Source: Escherichia phage IME08. From it: DNA of 64,000 nt. Below the pieces are notes generated by a model. It worked only from the letters and a program-made list of their open reading frames with translations, had not been told where the DNA came from and searched no databases. Location of the stretch: the sequence record NC_014260.1. One strand, 5' to 3'. Below, one piece after another: positions 42,910 through 52,979 of this stretch (position 1 is the first letter of the stretch; each line of letters opens with the position of its first letter). Position numbers and translations under genes: made by a program.

Positions 42910-44193
42910 ATGAAAAAGATTAATGCATTAATACAAGAATCAACTTTGACGGCGGCCAACCAGGTCGCCCGTCCTAATCTTCTTTCATATACCCAGGCAA
43001 CTAATAAAAGAATTTTTAAAGCCCTTGTTGCTGAACAAAAAACTACTCAACCTGTTGCAGCATTATATGGTGTCCGTGTTTTAAACCCAGACGATAAAAT
43101 GACTTATCTCGGCGGAGCCACTTTTGCAGGCGAAATTGGTATGTTCGAACGTAAAAACATTCCTGAATTCACCGATAAAGACGAAGCATATGCTGTTGGT
43201 GATATGTTCCAATTCGAAAGTGTGGTTTTCAAGGTATTAGAAGCTTCTCCGTTTGCAGGAACAACTGAAACCGATTTGGGCGAAGTTATTTCAGAAGCTA
43301 TTGCCGCAGGCCATATTCGTATGATGTCTGATGCAGCCTTTACCAATAAATTTGAAAAAGGCCATCCTGAGATTGCTGAAGCAGGATTCCGTATTGATAA
43401 GTGGCAGACTGAAGTTAAATCGCGTAAACTTAAAACTTCTTTGACTGTAGAACTGGCCCAGGATTTAGAATCCAACGGGTTTAATGCACCAGACTTTATA
43501 GACAATATTTTGGCTATTCAAATGGCCGAAGAAATTAATAAAGACGTATTACAGTCCTTAATTACGGTAAGTTCTCGTTTTAAAGTCCAAGGAGTTTCCG
43601 AGAAAGGCGTCTTGAACTTAACAGACCCACAATATGATAACGCCCAAGACCGAGCGCGTACCTTGTATTACTATATGTGTGAAATGAATTCTGCTGTTCA
43701 ACGCCAGACTTCGTTTGCAGGTACTTATGCAGTAGCTTCTTCTCGTTGCGCCGCTATTTTAGCTGCATCCGGTTGGGTTGAGAAAAAAGAAGACCAAGAC
43801 GAATTAGCTTATGGCATATTAAAGAACGGTCTACCACTTTATGCTGATATGAATAGTCCGTGTGATTATGTTATTGTCGGTGTAAATGCTCAGATGGGTG
43901 AAGGGCAGACGGTCGCATCTTTGTATTATGCGCCTTATACGGAAGGGCTCGAAGAAGTTGATGATGAAGGTGATACTTCAGTAGGTGAATTCAAGGTTAT
44001 TGTAGACCCAGATTCATTGCAACCTACCATATCTTTATTGGCTCGGTATGCATTGACTGCGAATCCTTATACCGTCGCTAAAGACGACAAAGAAGCTCGT
44101 ATTATTGACGGTGCGGATATGGACAAAATGGCTAATCAAAGTCAATTGAGTTCTTATCTTGGTGTTAAACTTCCTCCACTTGAAAAAAGCTAA
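42910..44193 (+). CDS. gp24 paralog (second vertex-protein copy)
   Basis: 427 aa; same conserved blocks as gp24 but diverged; starts 1 nt after gp24 stop. Confidence 0.85.
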   Translation: MKKINALIQESTLTAANQVARPNLLSYTQATNKRIFKALVAEQKTTQPVAALYGVRVLNPDDKMTYLGGATFAGEIGMFERKNIPEFTDKDEAYAVGDMFQFESVVFKVLEASPFAGTTETDLGEVISEAIAAGHIRMMSDAAFTNKFEKGHPEIAEAGFRIDKWQTEVKSRKLKTSLTVELAQDLESNGFNAPDFIDNILAIQMAEEINKDVLQSLITVSSRFKVQGVSEKGVLNLTDPQYDNAQDRARTLYYYMCEMNSAVQRQTSFAGTYAVASSRCAAILAASGWVEKKEDQDELAYGILKNGLPLYADMNSPCDYVIVGVNAQMGEGQTVASLYYAPYTEGLEEVDDEGDTSVGEFKVIVDPDSLQPTISLLARYALTANPYTVAKDDKEARIIDGADMDKMANQSQLSSYLGVKLPPLEKS

Positions 44194-44205
44194 TAGGAGA
44201 AATAT

Positions 44206-44412
44206 ATGGTAGATGAAACCCTGTTTGGTCATGACGGAAGAGGCAACTTTAGTGGCAAATCCTTAATTCAGCCAGAAGAGTCTATTATAATTCCGTTTTC
44301 GAACATCAGAATTTCTACAGAAAAGATAAAGTTAAATGAAGTTGAAGTTAACAATTTAGCAAAAAGTATTTTAGAATCAACAACCCAAGAAGAGGTTCAT
44401 AGTGTGTTTTAG
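44206..44412 (+). CDS. 68-aa ORF, likely N-terminal segment of the collagen-like protein
   Basis: ATG with SD aggaga; ends HSVF-TAG in a T4 run; LFGHDGRG motif shared with mini-ORF at 47032. Confidence 0.5.
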
Positions 44413-45602
44413 GAATAAACAATTCCCAGATAGAGCCAATAGAGGGTCCGCCGGGCCCTCAAGGAGACCCGGGCCCACAAGGTATTCAAGGCCCGCCCGG
44501 CCCTCAAGGAGACCAAGGTCCACAAGGTATTCAAGGCCTTAAAGGAGATAAAGGAGATACAGGTCCACAAGGTATTCAGGGCCTACAAGGACCCAAAGGA
44601 CCTAAAGGAGACCAGGGTCCACAAGGCATTCAAGGGCCTATAGGTCCTATAGGTCCCGCAGGGCTAATATGGAAAGGAGAATGGGATGTAGATACACTTT
44701 ACTCTGTCGATGATGCTGTTGGATATGCAGGTGCATCATATTTTTGTATAGCCGAAAATACCGGTAATATACCCACAGAATCGCCGGAAAACTGGGCCTT
44801 ATTAGCATCGCAAGGAGCTAGAGGAGAATCAGGGGCCCAGGGCCTACAAGGACCCAAAGGGGATAAAGGAGATACGGGTCTTCAAGGTATTCAAGGACCC
44901 AAAGGGGATAAAGGAGATACAGGTCTTCAAGGACCTATAGGGCCTATAGGACCTAAAGGAGACCAGGGTCCTCAAGGTTCTAGAGGTATTCAAGGTATTC
45001 AAGGTCCCCAAGGAGACCAGGGCCCACAAGGTTCTAGAGGTATTCAAGGTATTCAAGGACCTCAAGGAGACCAAGGTCCGCAAGGCCTTCAAGGACCCCA
45101 AGGAGATAAAGGAGAGGATGGATTCGGAATTGATTCTAAAATAAGTGGGGTATATAAAATTCCTGCATCCGGAACCAAAGGACAATTTTATATAAACTTA
45201 CCTGGGGCAGGTGGTCTTAGATTGATTGTATCAACGGCTGGGACAGGTAATGCTGTTAAAATAGGATACGGAGGTAACTCTAGCACTGTTCAAAGAACAT
45301 TTACTATAGGATATAATTTAACAGCTAATTATACCGATTTGGCAAAAATAAAAACCGGTAGGATAAATTATACAGGGTATACTTCGGTTTCATATAGTAG
45401 CGATACAACGGCTCTAGTCGGATATGGGGATATGTATACAGCAATAGCCTCTAATAAAGATACTTTAGATTCATGGCATATAGTAATATCAGGCGTAGTG
45501 GCAAAATCATCTGCTTCGGCCACTGATGGAAGATTACTTATATCTGTAACTAAAGTTTTTGATTCCGAAACTCAACAGATTCAAACAGGTGAAATATATT
45601 AA
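44403..45602 (+). CDS. collagen-like fiber protein with embedded carbohydrate-binding-like motif; no in-frame start, -1 frame relative to 44206 ORF
   Basis: About 400 open codons with two G-X-Y blocks, a W...Y..D.V.Y.G..Y.C...TG..P....P..W motif and a globular C-terminus; first usable start is TTG at 45222. Confidence 0.55.
44445..45122 (+). repeat. collagen-like G-X-Y triplet repeat region, two blocks
   Basis: Read directly: [16 protein letters not shown]... and [19 protein letters not shown]... Confidence 0.85.
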
Positions 45603-45608
45603 AACATA

Positions 45609-45626
45609 AAGGGCCGCAAGGCCCTT
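45609..45626. terminator. bidirectional stem-loop between collagen-like gene and rnlB
   Basis: AAGGGCC-GCAA-GGCCCUU between convergent genes. Confidence 0.65.
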
Positions 45627-45631
45627 ATCAT

Positions 45632-46639
45632 TTATTTGGATACTAGTTCAATCCAAACATGTCTTAATGTTTCTTTTACACACTCAATGAGCTGCTTTTT
45701 AACTTCAACAGGATTTTCAGCGTCAGTTAATTCTAATTCTTCACGGGCAGCTTCTTCAAGGATATCTTGGACCGTCAAGCCCATTACCTTTCCAAAATCC
45801 TTTTTGGAAACTTCGCCAATCTTACTGATAACATTGTTAATACGGTTAACAGTCACATAATCAGTGAATTGCCACATCAAATCCATATCGTCTTGGGATA
45901 AAACTACCGCAGCCTTAATAGGCTTATCAGACTTTTTCTTCTCGCTGAATTTAGAGTTCTTACATTTAATCGCTACACGATTTCCGTTTGGAAGCCAGGT
46001 AGGAATATCAGGTTTAAGTACAAAGCCTTCAGCCGTGAATACTTTACCTTCTACCTTAGGAATAAAGTCTGTAGAGTTTGCAATAGTTAGGCCGGCGTTA
46101 TCCACCGCAAAATTATAATCAGGAATAACTGAATCAAAGTCATTAGGTAATTTAATAAGGTCTTCAAAGCTACCTGTAGCCAGACATGGGGCTACCTTAA
46201 ACTTATGGATAATACAGAAGGCTTCCATCAATGTATCGGTTAGAACAGATTCTGAACCGTCTTCCTTAGTAACTCGGATATCGAACACATAAAAGTCTTT
46301 ATCACCGTAGTCCACATTCTTCTGGATACCTGGTCCAGCGAATTCGCCATAAATCTGGTACGACTGATAATTAATCGATTCAATTAGATGTTGAACAGAT
46401 TTAATAGAATCAGCATAGTTCTTAAGTACAATTTCATAACCATAGAAATCTTCAGCAGGGAGGATAGGGCCAGTGCGCTTGGCGCATGTGACTGCGTCAC
46501 GTTCTATGATTAAACTAAAGTTGGTCCCGTGAATCTTCTCACGTGCAACCCATTCACCACCAGTCAAACCGTTGATACGGAGTTTTTCGATAAACTTACT
46601 GTTGTAGTGGTTTTCGAGACTGCTATATTTCTTGAACAT
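45632..46639 (-). CDS. rnlB: RNA ligase 2
   Basis: N-terminus [21 protein letters not shown] matches T4 Rnl2; 335 aa. Confidence 0.95.
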
Positions 46640-47031: not shown

Positions 47032-47106
47032 ATGCCAGACAATCCATTATACGGGCATGACGGTAGAGGTGTATCATTAGAACTCACTAGTGAAAGCACC
47101 TTTTAA
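47032..47106 (+). CDS. 24-aa upstream mini-ORF (MPDNPLYGHDGRG...)
   Basis: ATG with SD aggag; stop lies in SD of next gene; N-terminus resembles 44206 ORF. Confidence 0.4.
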   Translation: MPDNPLYGHDGRGVSLELTSESTF

Positions 47107-47115
47107 GGAGGTTAA

Positions 47116-47982
47116 ATGATTGCACTTAAAATAAATGGTCCTAGATATGAATTGGTTGGTAAGACTGTAACGTTGTATACCGCATTTGTATTACCAGCAG
47201 GTTTGACTCTAGATGATATAGAAATTAATTGGTATAAAAATAATGTCCATGTCCCACAACTTCCTATTGAAGACCCTTTTGAATTGAATTTATGGGATGT
47301 TGGATATCCGGCGGCAGGAACATTTTATGCAACTATAACAAACAAGAAAAGTGGTGAAATAACAAAGAGTAATGAAATAGAACTTGAAATAGGTGTCATT
47401 CCAAGAAGAGTAATCCTGGATATAAGCTCTAGGGAATTAATATATGCCGATATAGGAGAAACCGTTTCACTTCGCCCGTCGTGTAGAGTAGAACCTACTT
47501 ATGCCGTACGTGATTGTAGATGGTATAGAAATGGAGTAGAATTATCTAACGATGAAGATATTGATATAACAATAGATAGTTCTGATAAATTCGGTACATA
47601 CATGTTGAAATCTATAGCGACCTGCGAAGGAGCGTATATCCCTGCTTCTGAAGAACTTTTAGTTGAAATAAAACCTAGAGGGGGTGTATTGCAGTGCCCG
47701 TTCATATATGATAACGACCTTAATGCCTATTTACCATATGGCGGCGGAAGAAATGAATCTTATATGTGGATAGGTTGGTGGGTGTGGGACGAAATAAGAG
47801 AAGCCGTTAGATTAGGAGAAGATTGGACGTTGGATATAAACAACAGCCGTTACAAGTATAAATGTGAGTTACAAAAAGTAGCCGACCTTTTGTCTAAGTA
47901 TCATGAAGTAGAGATACAAGAATCTAGAAACGGATATATTCTGGGGCGTAAAGACTTGCTTTATGTTCCGCCTGTACCATAA
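47116..47982 (+). CDS. Hoc-like capsid decoration protein paralog (2 Ig-like domains + Hoc C-terminal domain)
   Basis: C-terminus YMWIGWWVWDEIR...EVEIQESRNGYI parallels Hoc capsid-binding domain; two N-terminal repeats of about 90 aa. Confidence 0.75.
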   Translation: MIALKINGPRYELVGKTVTLYTAFVLPAGLTLDDIEINWYKNNVHVPQLPIEDPFELNLWDVGYPAAGTFYATITNKKSGEITKSNEIELEIGVIPRRVILDISSRELIYADIGETVSLRPSCRVEPTYAVRDCRWYRNGVELSNDEDIDITIDSSDKFGTYMLKSIATCEGAYIPASEELLVEIKPRGGVLQCPFIYDNDLNAYLPYGGGRNESYMWIGWWVWDEIREAVRLGEDWTLDINNSRYKYKCELQKVADLLSKYHEVEIQESRNGYILGRKDLLYVPPVP

Positions 47983-51862: not shown

Positions 51863-52531
51863 CTATTTATTAGCCAAATTCTTTTCAAATGTTTTAACCA
51901 TATAACCTACATCTAAATCAGGAAATCCATTCTCAACTATTATGCGTTGAAATTTCCTTCTTTTAGGCATTCCTTCCTTTATCCAAAGTTCACGGATTTC
52001 CTTTTCAAATTCCCATAATTTACTTCTCATAGAAAGCTTAGGCTGTGAATGTTTACCTATATGGGCCTCATTAGCCTCTTTGGTACGTTTCTTACCTAAT
52101 TTGGCTAATGACATAGCTTTTTTAGCTTCTTCTGTATGAGAATATGGATTTCTTTTATGACCCGCACTTATGGCTTGTTTGGTGGATTCAGACCTTGGAA
52201 TACCTCGTATTTTCGACGCACTCTTTTCAATAGATTCAGGAGAACGAGTAGTACAACTACCTCCTTCACCACCAGGTTTCATATTCATACAGCGAATACC
52301 TTTACCAAACTTATCCCAAGCCTCTTCTATCAAAAGCTCTTCGAATTCATAAGCAAGTTGTTCGGTATCGAAAAAAGTCCTATCGACTATTTCAATTCGG
52401 TATTTTAATCTTTTTGCATAATAGATGTAATTACCAGACCCTACATACTTGTCAGATATTTTATCAGAAGAATGCTTACCAAAATATCGCCTAGTTCCGT
52501 TAGGCGAGTATACTAAAGTTTGGTAGCACAT
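51863..52531 (-). CDS. GIY-YIG homing endonuclease (Seg-like)
   Basis: N-terminal VYSPNGTRRYFGKH...YVGSG; basic C-terminus; start may be 52561. Confidence 0.75.
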   Translation of the reverse strand: MCYQTLVYSPNGTRRYFGKHSSDKISDKYVGSGNYIYYAKRLKYRIEIVDRTFFDTEQLAYEFEELLIEEAWDKFGKGIRCMNMKPGGEGGSCTTRSPESIEKSASKIRGIPRSESTKQAISAGHKRNPYSHTEEAKKAMSLAKLGKKRTKEANEAHIGKHSQPKLSMRSKLWEFEKEIRELWIKEGMPKRRKFQRIIVENGFPDLDVGYMVKTFEKNLANK

Positions 52532-52541
52532 ATGGTACTTT

Positions 52542-52979
52542 TTATTTTTCACCTGCTTCAAATTTCCTGAGCTCCAACATATTCTTTAATGAGAAACCTC
52601 TGGCTTTGACTGCGTCTAAAGCCGAACTACAGAAGTCCTGTAATAAAGCCCAATACTGGATTGACGTATCGATTTTAATTACACTAGAATCTGCAGCCAT
52701 TACGGTCTTTAATTCAGACTTCTCATATTGGTCCATACAAACCTCATCACCAGGCTCTCCACGTCCCGTGTAGAAATCTAATCGCTTCTTAAGTGAGGTC
52801 TTTTTCTGGATTTCTAATCTCATTATTTCTTTCTTACAATTCGTATACAGTCTTAGCCATTTGCTGTGCAGCAAAACGTTGTTCTGTACTTCATACTGTA
52901 AACGAGTCCCATCAATCTTCAAATCTTCATCCAAAGCATCTTGAAACGACTCTAATTTATATTCAATCTCTTTACTCAT
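52542..52979 (-). CDS. uvsY: UvsY recombination mediator
   Basis: LQYEV.NNV, RLDFYTGRG, YEKSELKTV, QYWALLQDFCS.ALDA motifs match T4 UvsY; start moved to ATG 52979. Confidence 0.9.
   Translation of the reverse strand: MSKEIEYKLESFQDALDEDLKIDGTRLQYEVQNNVLLHSKWLRLYTNCKKEIMRLEIQKKTSLKKRLDFYTGRGEPGDEVCMDQYEKSELKTVMAADSSVIKIDTSIQYWALLQDFCSSALDAVKARGFSLKNMLELRKFEAGEK

Follow-up and report, generated by a model that had tools for sequence, protein, structure and literature searches.

Two open frames between gene 24 and rnlB

The window analysed here is a 64,000-nucleotide stretch of the genome of Escherichia phage IME08 (Dhakavirus). The stop codon of gp24 at 44191-44193 is directly followed by the Shine-Dalgarno (SD) sequence of a 68-codon ORF, and a much longer open frame, one base behind, takes over where this ORF ends. 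The locus comprises the following features:

44195..44199, plus strand: SD sequence AGGAG, read from the sequence, with a 6-nt spacer to ATG 44206
44206..44412, plus strand: 68-codon ORF from the ORF list, encoding the N-terminal (anchor) domain of a fibre family and ending with TAG 44410-44412
44403..44410, plus strand: interval that necessarily holds the frame change, bounded by TAG 44400-44402 in the -1 frame and TAG 44410-44412 in the 0 frame
44409..45602, plus strand: rest of the gene, read in the -1 frame (397 codons and a stop), by translation
44445..44660, plus strand: collagen-like block 1 (Pfam Collagen and triplet count)
44661..44813, plus strand: CBM5/12-like module between the collagen blocks (Pfam CBM_5_12, sub-threshold)
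44814..45122, plus strand: collagen-like block 2 (Pfam Collagen and triplet count)
45123..45599, plus strand: C-terminal globular domain of ~159 aa, a predicted all-beta sandwich
45609..45626, no strand assigned: hairpin AAGGGCC-GCAA-GGCCCTT, a bidirectional terminator separating the fibre gene from rnlB
45632..46639, minus strand: rnlB, convergent to the fibre gene

A sequence-only reading of this locus had described a well-initiated ORF with an SD sequence that starts at ATG 44206 and ends 10 nt into a start-less frame of about 400 codons (44403..45602), and our analysis bears out each element. The downstream frame, immediately preceded by TAG 44400-44402, is open from 44403 to TAA 45600-45602 (399 sense codons) and contains no ATG, GTG or TTG until TTG 45222; the two frames overlap by 10 nt, in GUGUUUUAG (44404-44412). 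The open downstream frame is not due to chance. Its 483-nt non-collagen C-terminal part remained stop-free in 0 of 20,000 shuffles, and stops number 27 and 31 in the region's other two frames. In GenBank, positions 44415-45602 are annotated as a 395-aa 'tail fiber-like protein' starting at ATA; the corresponding entry (P0001), which begins MNNSQIEP, is 100% identical to the downstream product. With an E-value of 1.2e-105, residues 76-449 match PHROG 5073, 'tail fiber protein'.

In the -1 frame, the end of the N-domain leads into two collagen stretches with a CBM-like module between them, and the C-terminal domain closes the protein. The two G-X-Y blocks that had been called perfect are indeed uninterrupted runs, of 24 and ~35 triplets, respectively (Pfam PF01391 Collagen, 99.2 bits, E 1.1e-28, cut-off 27.2). 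The segment between them, previously likened to a small carbohydrate-binding module, resembles CBM5/12, though below the Pfam threshold (PF02839 CBM_5_12, 16.7 bits against a gathering cut-off of 26.2, the match spanning only positions 1-29 of the 44 in the profile). A PF02839 match is precomputed for many homologs, and the CBM5/12-like module is visible in every relative, being conserved family-wide. The C-terminal domain is probably the distal tip of the fibre. A structural model of the domain, with a moderate pLDDT of 71.5, hit the C-termini of family members in Foldseek (E ~1e-6) and gave no jelly-roll match to the C1q/TNF structures found in BclA and other collagen-tailed proteins. In sequence searches of the PDB, the N-domain profile had no match, and the C-terminal domain matched only light-harvesting-complex entries, which were rejected as spurious.

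The fibre gene is probably co-transcribed with gene 24, because the nearest T4 late promoter TATAAATA is no closer than 41593. The segment ~44194-45615 is absent from the closest relatives of IME08, such as IME341 and JS98, in which gp24 is followed by the terminator and rnlB; IME341 has a variant terminator hairpin at the equivalent place. The earlier statement that T4 has no such gene here is supported, in that T4-type relatives lack a gene at this position.

The fibre family and its hoc-2 neighbour

In tblastn searches, the 68-aa ORF matched fibre genes of Cronus, Aeromonas phage 65, ABTNLsp5, JS10 and others at their N-termini. It aligns along the whole N-domain of this family and stops ~11 residues short of the domain end, and the first codons of the -1 frame, TTA GGA ATA, supply the G-I that is invariant in the [L/I]GI motif. 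We built a family HMM from 25 relatives, leaving IME08 out. The 68-aa ORF alone scored 56.2 bits (HMM positions 1-66 of 88), compared with 72.5 bits for a join with 1 nt added and 77.6 bits, gapless, for a join with 2 nt (GT or TT) removed; these joined sequences cover HMM positions 1-87. The score was 57.2 bits for the join to the +1 frame and 2.5 bits for the GenBank product starting at ATA. The complete ~78-aa N-domain is present in IME08 solely across the frame junction. Judged by these comparisons, a single collagen-like fibre gene is divided between the 68-aa ORF and the collagen frame. The sequence-only reading had regarded the two ORFs as fusible, and a one-base repair does give a fibre protein of ~465 aa with a higher HMM score than the ORF alone.

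An exhaustive HMMER search of 1.84 billion representative proteins yielded ~25 family members, all with the N-domain at residues 1-78 and with protein lengths of 155-610 aa; the sole N-domain-only protein in this library that is not an evident fragment or remnant is the IME08 ORF itself (P0121). Alignment to related T4-like genomes, suggested earlier as a check on fusion, found the N-domain and the collagen part fused in one frame in 10 phage genomes. Each of these 10 phage genes and 1 metagenomic gene (L016) is one uninterrupted ORF, and the split arrangement is absent from the ~25 cluster representatives, the 10 phage genes and the metagenomic gene alike. In IMG/VR, an exact 21-mer beside the junction had 0 matches, a peptide-pattern scan with the C-terminal domain found no relatives, and a scan with the N-domain profile returned just 4 isolates, all already known. 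A degenerate-motif scan of a metagenome collection gave 36 loci, among them 1 true family member, the distant, single-frame L016. A word-indexed protein search with the 81-aa N-terminus retrieved only IME08's own ORF, and one with the C-terminal domain retrieved nothing. Since none of these searches found a relative of the IME08 fibre gene at >50% identity, the ancestral junction nucleotides are not directly readable. A literature search on collagen-like or Hoc-associated fibres of T4-like phages turned up nothing on this fibre family.

Two further features, beyond rnlB, belong to the same family context:

47032..47106, plus strand: 24-codon remnant MPDNPLYGHDGRGVSLELTSESTF, followed by its stop, of a second, resident fibre gene, from alignment with CLB_P2
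47116..47982, plus strand: hoc-2, a second, shorter Hoc-like head decoration gene of 288 aa, from the ORF list and blastp

The remnant occupies the canonical position of the family, directly upstream of hoc-2. Its 5' UTR and first 13 codons are near-identical to those of CLB_P2, differing only by a Ser-to-Pro change at codon 2, and its last codons, together with the SD and start of hoc-2, also match CLB_P2; by this alignment, it arose by an in-frame internal deletion of the resident fibre gene. The IME08 hoc-2 matches the gene 3' of the fibre gene in 9 phages (blastp E-values from 1e-17 to 0). Fibre gene and hoc-2 co-occur in 22 of 22 phage records, and a Hoc-2-like gene lies immediately 3' on the same strand in 9 of 9 intact relatives, at a gap of -11 to +11 nt, and in some of them the fibre stop and hoc-2 start codons overlap. 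The frame-broken IME08 copy has no adjoining hoc-2, which is 1.5 kb off, beyond rnlB. Because the resident copy is reduced to a 24-codon remnant, and the closest relatives IME341 and JS98 carry neither a fibre gene nor hoc-2, the fibre function is being lost in the IME08 lineage. The fibre copies of AP1 and PspYZU05 have decayed independently.

The frame change and its possible origins

The interval that must hold the frame change contains most of a (GT)3 repeat (44402-44407) and all of a T4 run (44407-44410), and the deposited sequence at the junction is GTGTGTTTTAGG. Its codons are GTG TTT TAG GAA TA, compared with GCA TTT ATA GGA ATT in ABTNLsp5 and GGT ATT TTA GGA ATA in Aeromonas phage 65. 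We favour, with a probability of about 0.6, the explanation that the fibre gene was split by a simple one- or two-base indel and is consequently a pseudogene in IME08 as sequenced; we infer that this indel is real and not an assembly error. One base may have been lost (TTT[A/T]TAGGA to TTTTAGGA), or a GT or TT dinucleotide may have been gained, a GT gain within (GT)3 fitting equally well. Either indel would place TAG 44410-44412 in frame. The strong SD and ATG would then yield only the 68-aa N-domain fragment, and the 397 downstream codons would go without a useful level of translation. The intact protein, as seen in relatives, would start with the ~78-aa N-terminal anchor domain ending in ...LGI, followed by a collagen triple-helix spacer, a CBM5/12-like knob, a second collagen spacer and a ~160-aa beta-sandwich tip. 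This intact product would be a trimeric collagen-like accessory fibre.

A pseudogene and a sequence error had both been named as alternatives in the sequence-only reading, and these are the readings that the evidence favours. Of the repair proposed there, a single T insertion, it stands that one added base restores the frame, but the lost base need not have been T (TTT ATA GGA AT in ABTNLsp5 versus TTT TAG GAA T in IME08). Some other routes to the observed layout were dismissed. A recombination scar at the junction would break the protein inside a domain rather than between modules, the N-domain extending 11 residues beyond the junction; reading through the amber codon TAG 44410 would lead to a TAA two codons later in the 0 frame; and the four-T run is too short for transcriptional slippage.

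The headline of the sequence-only reading, a -1 slip at UUU-UAG, is not supported. Such a programmed or functionally relevant frameshift at the G_UUU_UAG 'shifty stop' would provide some full-length fibre along with the 68-aa product, and the layout has points in its favour: the stop comes right after a U-rich codon, within the sole 7-nt interval that would permit a -1 shift, the downstream frame has been kept perfectly, and UUU is preceded, at a distance of 10 nt, by an SD-like GAGGT (44392-44396). In dnaX, an SD-like sequence at a spacing of ~10 nt stimulates -1 shifting. The IME08 GAGGT, at chance level, falls in GAA-GAG-GTT codons for Glu-Glu-Val. The case for programmed frameshifting fails to find support, because the site lacks a slippery heptamer and a clear stimulatory RNA structure, and none of the homologs has the split. 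X_XXY_YYZ is missing at the site, and tRNA-Phe would face GUU after the slip, with a first-position mismatch; among the usable codons AGU, GUG and UUU (44401-44409; contexts U_AGU, U_GUG and G_UUU), none re-pairs fully. The slip that does re-pair perfectly, UUU_U, is a +1 slip into the third frame, a dead end that stops after 46 codons and adds only 1 bit to the HMM score of the ORF alone. The fold of 44410-44500 is unexceptional (z = -1.24, with 28 of 200 shuffles folding at least as well), the sole nearby RNA feature is a 5-bp AU-rich hairpin 2 nt past the site, and no Rfam element was matched (a greA-leader hit at 21 bits against a threshold of 60 was dismissed). Moreover, the two-frame layout is unique to IME08 among ~35 homologs, whereas genuine recoding sites are conserved. 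We therefore regard recoding as very improbable. Scarcely credible is independent translation of the collagen part from ATA 44415, as annotated in GenBank, which would give a 395-aa fibre devoid of the N-domain and a separate 68-aa protein. The GenBank/RefSeq CDS does begin MNNSQ, with ATA read as Met, and the upstream stop is 3 nt away, so that termination-reinitiation is conceivable. However, ATA is a very poor initiator in E. coli, the sole SD-like sequence (AGGA, 44411-44414) abuts the ATA and leaves no spacer, the product would begin in the middle of the last motif of the anchor domain and thus lack this conserved part, as its N-domain HMM score reflects, and no homolog begins there.

A sequencing or assembly error would mean that the true IME08 genome has an intact gene for the ~465-aa fibre and that the deposited sequence is 1 nt short or 2 nt long at 44403-44410. 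This is unlikely in our view, though far from negligible. Apart from the frame change, the gene is flawless, with its SD, 397 stop-free codons and terminator intact, and a single lesion in such a setting is exactly what a sequence or assembly error, or a very recent mutation, would leave. The assembly was an early one (2010), made with Velvet from 73-75-nt reads of a ~20x subset; the site, where the (GT)3 repeat meets the T4 run, has highly repetitive collagen DNA ~40 nt downstream, and annotators had no homolog by which to spot a break and began the CDS at ATA instead. Furthermore, deletion of the resident copy could mean that the inserted copy replaced it and is under selection, which would argue for an intact gene. 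On the other hand, the IME08 genome was determined by Illumina GA sequencing at ~4,300x coverage (PMC3105952). Of the earlier suggestion of a homopolymer sequencing error, a sequence error is still possible, but the homopolymer cause is weakened, because the data are Illumina reads at this depth, a chemistry with no homopolymer indel bias, and not pyrosequencing. When 84 IME341 ORFs were mapped on the 64-kb window, 0 frame breaks were found in real genes, so no other gene is frame-broken relative to IME341, and the fibre function is demonstrably decaying in IME08 and its clade. In the annotation of IME08, the CDS starting at ATA should give way to a frameshifted or pseudogene feature that links 44206-44412 with the -1 frame. 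More generally, a start-less ORF one frame off can be resolved independently of reads, from a domain that runs across the junction and from whether homologs share the split.

A fibre-Hoc-2 pair and comparison with known systems

The fibre gene and Hoc-2 constitute a strictly linked, previously undescribed gene pair in a minority of T4-like phages. The pair has changed repeatedly, by gain, loss, relocation and swapping (a Vequintavirinae-type tip in the case of IME08). Because of the co-occurrence in all 22 records, the adjacency in all 9 intact relatives and the location among head genes (24, hoc, inh), we tentatively suggest on these genomic grounds, as a rather doubtful reading, that the pair may form a two-gene module by which some T4-like phages equip their capsid with collagen-like fibres that bind glycans. 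Hoc-2 would be the capsid-binding adaptor and the conserved N-domain its ligand, and IME08 would represent a lineage losing its head fibres, with one copy deleted and one frameshifted. Should the head indeed be where the fibre sits, the T4 group would gain a new type of capsid appendage.

The two-frame layout recalls dnaX (A_AAA_AAG) and the tail assembly chaperone G/GT of long-tailed phages, with which IME08 shares overlapping frames, a start-less -1 downstream frame and an SD-like sequence ~10 nt upstream. Unlike these systems, IME08 has no slippery heptamer, clear stimulatory structure, conserved arrangement or second functional product that could be rationalised.

In overall architecture, the IME08 fibre is similar to SPP1 gp12 and Bacillus BclA, in which a G-X-Y triple helix likewise links an N-terminal anchor to a globular C-terminal domain, but outside the collagen repeat they have no sequence relationship to it. 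Of the two, SPP1 gp12 forms a collagen-like trimer and binds to hexamers of the capsid (PMC7602432).

The closest counterparts of the N-terminal part are encoded by T4-like (Straboviridae) myoviruses, the group to which IME08 itself belongs. The 'tail fiber protein' AWD90325.1 (337 aa) of Erwinia phage Cronus and its T4-like relatives (Aeromonas phage 65 p147, JS10 EpJS10_0176, ABTNLsp5 QPI13310.1, CLB_P2 UNI73282.1, CGG4-1 and dhabil) share with IME08 the N-domain LFGHDGRGN ... LGI and the module order collagen, CBM5/12-like, collagen, C-terminal beta-sandwich, and in Cronus the fibre gene also directly follows gene 24. These relatives are single ORFs with a Hoc-2-like gene immediately next to them, whereas the IME08 copy is frame-broken and distant from hoc-2. 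The C-terminal domain of IME08 has no detectable sequence similarity to the Cronus-type C-termini; only the predicted fold matches.

The C-terminal domain instead matches, at 36-45% identity over ~155 aa, the C-termini of the 'tail fiber proteins' of Vequintavirinae (Cronobacter phage CR8 YP_009042248.1, Escherichia phage LTH01 WWT49286.1 and Pectobacterium phage POP15 QPI18060.1) and of a metagenomic protein (P0014). These proteins have the same collagen, CBM-like, collagen body as IME08, and there is a weak resemblance (11-14 bits) between their first ~35 residues and the start of the N-domain, but their N-terminus is shorter and lacks the ...LGI repeat half, and their genes stand at the end of the tail-fibre cluster of rV5-like phages, with no Hoc-like neighbour. 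Judging from the similarities of its parts, the IME08 fibre gene is a chimera, in which the N-domain of T4-like phages is combined with a body and tip closest to those of Vequintavirinae, inserted between gene 24 and rnlB.

Two reading frames of one fibre gene

Re-reading the locus confirmed the sequence-only description of a well-initiated ORF followed by a start-less collagen frame, in which TTG 45222 is the first ATG, GTG or TTG codon.

Features of the fibre and hoc-2 loci
44195-44199, +: ribosome-binding site AGGAG
ATG 44206 to TAG 44410-44412, +: 68-codon ORF with a good ribosome-binding site
after TAG 44400-44402 to TAA 45600-45602, +: frame one base behind (-1), 399 open codons
44415-45602, +: public IME08 CDS, 395-aa 'tail fiber-like protein', ATA start
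47032-47106, +: 24-codon mini-ORF (MPDNPLYGHDGRGVSLELTSESTF-stop) with its own SD, directly upstream of hoc-2, at the canonical family position
47116-47982, +: hoc-2, a second, shorter Hoc-like head decoration gene and conserved partner of the fibre gene

The -1 frame encodes two collagen blocks of 24 and about 35 uninterrupted G-X-Y triplets (Pfam Collagen, 99.2 bits), a module between them and a non-repetitive C-terminus of ~159 aa. The module, previously taken for a carbohydrate-binding one, does resemble CBM_5_12, but only below threshold (16.7 bits, cut-off 26.2). The 483-nt C-terminal part was stop-free in none of 20,000 shuffles, and the remaining two frames of the region contain 27 and 31 stops; thus, the open frame is not a chance product. 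A 46-codon GTG ORF in the third frame (44402-44542, +) is collagen DNA read out of frame, and is the destination of an easy +1 slip on UUU_U.

In tblastn searches, the 68-aa ORF matched the N-terminal ends of proteins annotated as 'tail fiber' or hypothetical in other T4-like phages, including Erwinia phage Cronus, Aeromonas phages 65, GomatiRiver_11 and AS4, Salmonella phage CGG4-1 and the Dhakaviruses JS10, ABTNLsp5, CLB_P2 and dhabil. Whether the two frames are fused in such genomes had been posed as a check, and each matched relative indeed has a single ORF encoding a ~78-aa N-terminal anchor domain (N-domain, ending LGI), collagen, the same CBM-like module as in IME08, collagen and a C-terminal domain. 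The 68 IME08 residues span the N-domain as far as its last motif, and the family-invariant G-I of [L/I]-G-I is encoded directly past the junction by the first -1-frame codons, TTA GGA ATA. Alternative readings were scored with a family HMM built from 25 relatives, IME08 left out.

Family HMM scores of alternative readings
68-aa ORF alone: 56.2 bits
-1 join, one base added (…HSVFLGIN…): 72.5 bits
join after removal of one GT or TT (…HSVLGIN…): 77.6 bits, gapless
+1 join: 57.2 bits
GenBank ATA-start product: 2.5 bits

The rise from 56.2 to 72.5-77.6 bits on joining, together with the G-I motif beyond the junction, bears out the earlier one-gene proposal, and sequence comparison thus confirms the 68-aa ORF and the -1 frame as parts of one gene.

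The second half of the N-domain (residues ~40-72, window 44320-44440) corresponds to a single unit of the repeat …YGxSLLxxxDAxxARxxLG[LI]G…, for which Pfam has no model. It occurs in 5-15 copies in long phage fibre/spike proteins (P0131, P0137, P0143 and P0145), one repeat-bearing protein also having a Peptidase_S74 chaperone domain. The frame break sits just ahead of the closing LG[I/L].

The public IME08 annotation masks the frameshift. The -1 frame product is 100% identical to the 395-aa protein, whose N-terminus, MNNSQIEP, places the depositors' start at ATA 44415, read as Met; the 68-aa ORF is listed separately in one protein collection (metaclust). Translation from this ATA is implausible: ATA is a poor initiator, no spacer follows AGGA, and the product, at 2.5 bits, would be without the anchor domain.

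Acquisition and loss of fibre genes

IME08 is a JS98-like T4-type phage (Dhakavirus). In its closest relatives, JS98 and IME341 (the closest on the flanks, at 98% identity), only a terminator hairpin lies between gene 24 and the convergent rnlB gene, so the ~1.4-kb segment 44194-45615 is an IME08-specific insertion. It brings an SD of its own and a variant terminator. A scan for T4 late promoters found none closer to the fibre gene than 41593; the gene is therefore probably on the gene 24 late transcript. Elsewhere in the window, downstream of uvsW, a 232-aa TTG-started ORF (51863-52561, -) has no Pfam match and lacks an annotated counterpart at this position in IME341; it may be mobile or accessory.

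In its C-terminal domain, the fibre protein shares 36-45% identity with the metagenomic protein P0014 and with the C-termini of Vequintavirinae 'tail fiber proteins' (LTH01, CR3/CR8/PBES 02, POP15-18), whose genes close the tail-fibre cluster. The IME08 gene is thus chimeric, pairing a T4-like N-domain with a body and tip of Vequintavirinae type. AlphaFold2 models the tip as all-beta (pLDDT 71.5, pTM 0.71), and Foldseek matches this model to the C-termini of sequence-unrelated family members (E ~1e-6, TM 0.53-0.62), the pattern expected of a diversifying distal binding domain. If intact, the protein would be a trimeric fibre in which collagen spacers link an N-terminal anchor, a central, predicted glycan-binding knob and a variable tip.

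The mini-ORF at 47032-47106 still has the 5' UTR, initial 13 codons and final codons of a fibre gene of CLB_P2 type, and is an in-frame internal-deletion remnant of a second fibre gene. IME08 would therefore have two fibre-gene copies, both inactivated, and with the second reduced to 24 codons, fibre function is visibly being lost. IME341 and JS98 have neither the fibre gene nor hoc-2; at the site of the module in other Dhakaviruses, IME341 has ~420 nt of unannotated DNA, in the interval between hoc and the 24.3-like gene (L011 16662-18713). Independently decayed copies are seen in Aeromonas phage AP1, a 78-aa stump divergent after residue ~45 (L055 3995-4231), and in Pseudomonas phage PspYZU05, where a 34-codon stump is fused to the C-terminal two-thirds of a Hoc-2 homolog (L009 4001-4647).

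The frame break

The frame change is confined to 44403-44410 by the upstream -1-frame stop and the downstream stop in the frame of the 68-aa ORF. Because the N-domain extends 11 residues past it, the break is best read as an indel within a domain, and a recombination joint at this point was rejected. At the junction, ABTNLsp5, of the same genus, has the codons GCA TTT ATA GGA ATT (AFIGI), and IME08 TTT TAG GAA T may be this sequence minus one A or a TTT TTA ancestor minus one T. An equally simple event would be a gain of GT in the IME08 (GT)3 repeat (44402-44407), which fits the match of the Aeromonas phage 65 codons, GGT ATT TTA GGA ATA (GILGI), to the IME08 -1 frame, TGT GTT TTA GGA ATA. A close relative of the IME08 fibre gene was not found in any collection searched, and we therefore leave one-base loss and GT gain unranked.

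We favour a real inactivating indel, with a probability of about 0.6. Illumina Genome Analyser reads covered the genome at ~4,300x, with Velvet as the assembler (PMC3105952), and such high-depth data carry no homopolymer bias. Furthermore, when 84 IME341 ORFs of at least 80 aa were mapped on the 64-kb window, no real gene proved to be frame-broken; the one ORF flagged is antisense and spans the gp13/wac intergenic region. A real lesion also agrees with the ongoing loss of fibre function, given the remnants in IME08, AP1 and PspYZU05 and the absence of the module from IME341 and JS98. These same observations weigh against an error in the deposited sequence, with the gene intact in the actual phage, which we regard as possible but distinctly less probable; it would account for a fibre gene free of any second lesion, and no reference existed for checking this gene in the 2010 assembly. 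Thus, the pseudogene and sequencing-error alternatives raised at first reading are the ones favoured, the latter with its homopolymer rationale weakened, and the locus holds an accessory fibre gene with a disrupted frame, or a sequence error there, in a lineage that also deleted its other copy.

Functional -1 recoding, proposed earlier as a slip at UUU-UAG, is very unlikely. Its sole support is GAGGT, an SD-like sequence that precedes UUU by 10 nt and is unremarkable in Glu-Glu-Val codons. The three -1-usable codons stand in the contexts U_AGU, U_GUG and G_UUU, none with full re-pairing, and the only perfectly re-pairing slip, +1 on UUU_U, enters the third frame and ends after 46 codons. The downstream 91 nt fold no better than shuffles (z -1.24), the lone local hairpin is AU-rich, 5 bp long and 2 nt from the site, and an Rfam search returned nothing relevant. 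Decisively, the split is not conserved: about 25 family members (155-610 aa), all carrying the N-domain at residues 1-78, emerged when 1.84 billion representatives were searched exhaustively with HMMER. The sole true metagenomic member is likewise in one frame. Evident fragments and remnants aside, the IME08 ORF alone is domain-only. With no slippery site, no stimulatory RNA structure found downstream and a split unique to IME08, the proposed slip is unsupported.

Linkage to hoc-2

A hoc-2 homolog is the next same-strand gene for every one of the 9 intact family genes whose flanks are long enough (L001, L002, L004, L005, L006, L010, L052, L053 and L054), at a distance of -11 to +11 nt; in Aeromonas phages 65, GomatiRiver_11 and AS4, stop and start overlap as ATGA. 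These downstream genes match IME08 hoc-2 in blastp with E values of 1e-17 to 0, and the short Cronus protein consists of one Ig-like domain and the Hoc capsid-binding C-terminus. The N-terminal part of Hoc-2 is present in 22 of 50,697 phage records, and all 22 also encode the fibre N-domain. Four records have the fibre only, namely Phynn (with a divergent Hoc-2), AP1 and two of PspYZU05 (decayed fibre copies). IME08 alone has a full-length fibre copy apart from hoc-2.

Such linkage and the location among head genes (24, hoc, inh) raise the possibility, on purely genomic grounds, that Hoc-2 carries the fibre as an appendage of the head. We found no literature on this family among reports of collagen-like or Hoc-associated fibres of T4-like phages, and consider the fibre and Hoc-2 module a modest lead worth structural follow-up. 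The proposed Hoc-2-borne head fibre would be analogous to the collagen-like gp12 of SPP1 (PMC7602432), whereas in Vequintavirinae the homologous body is encoded in a tail-fibre cluster.
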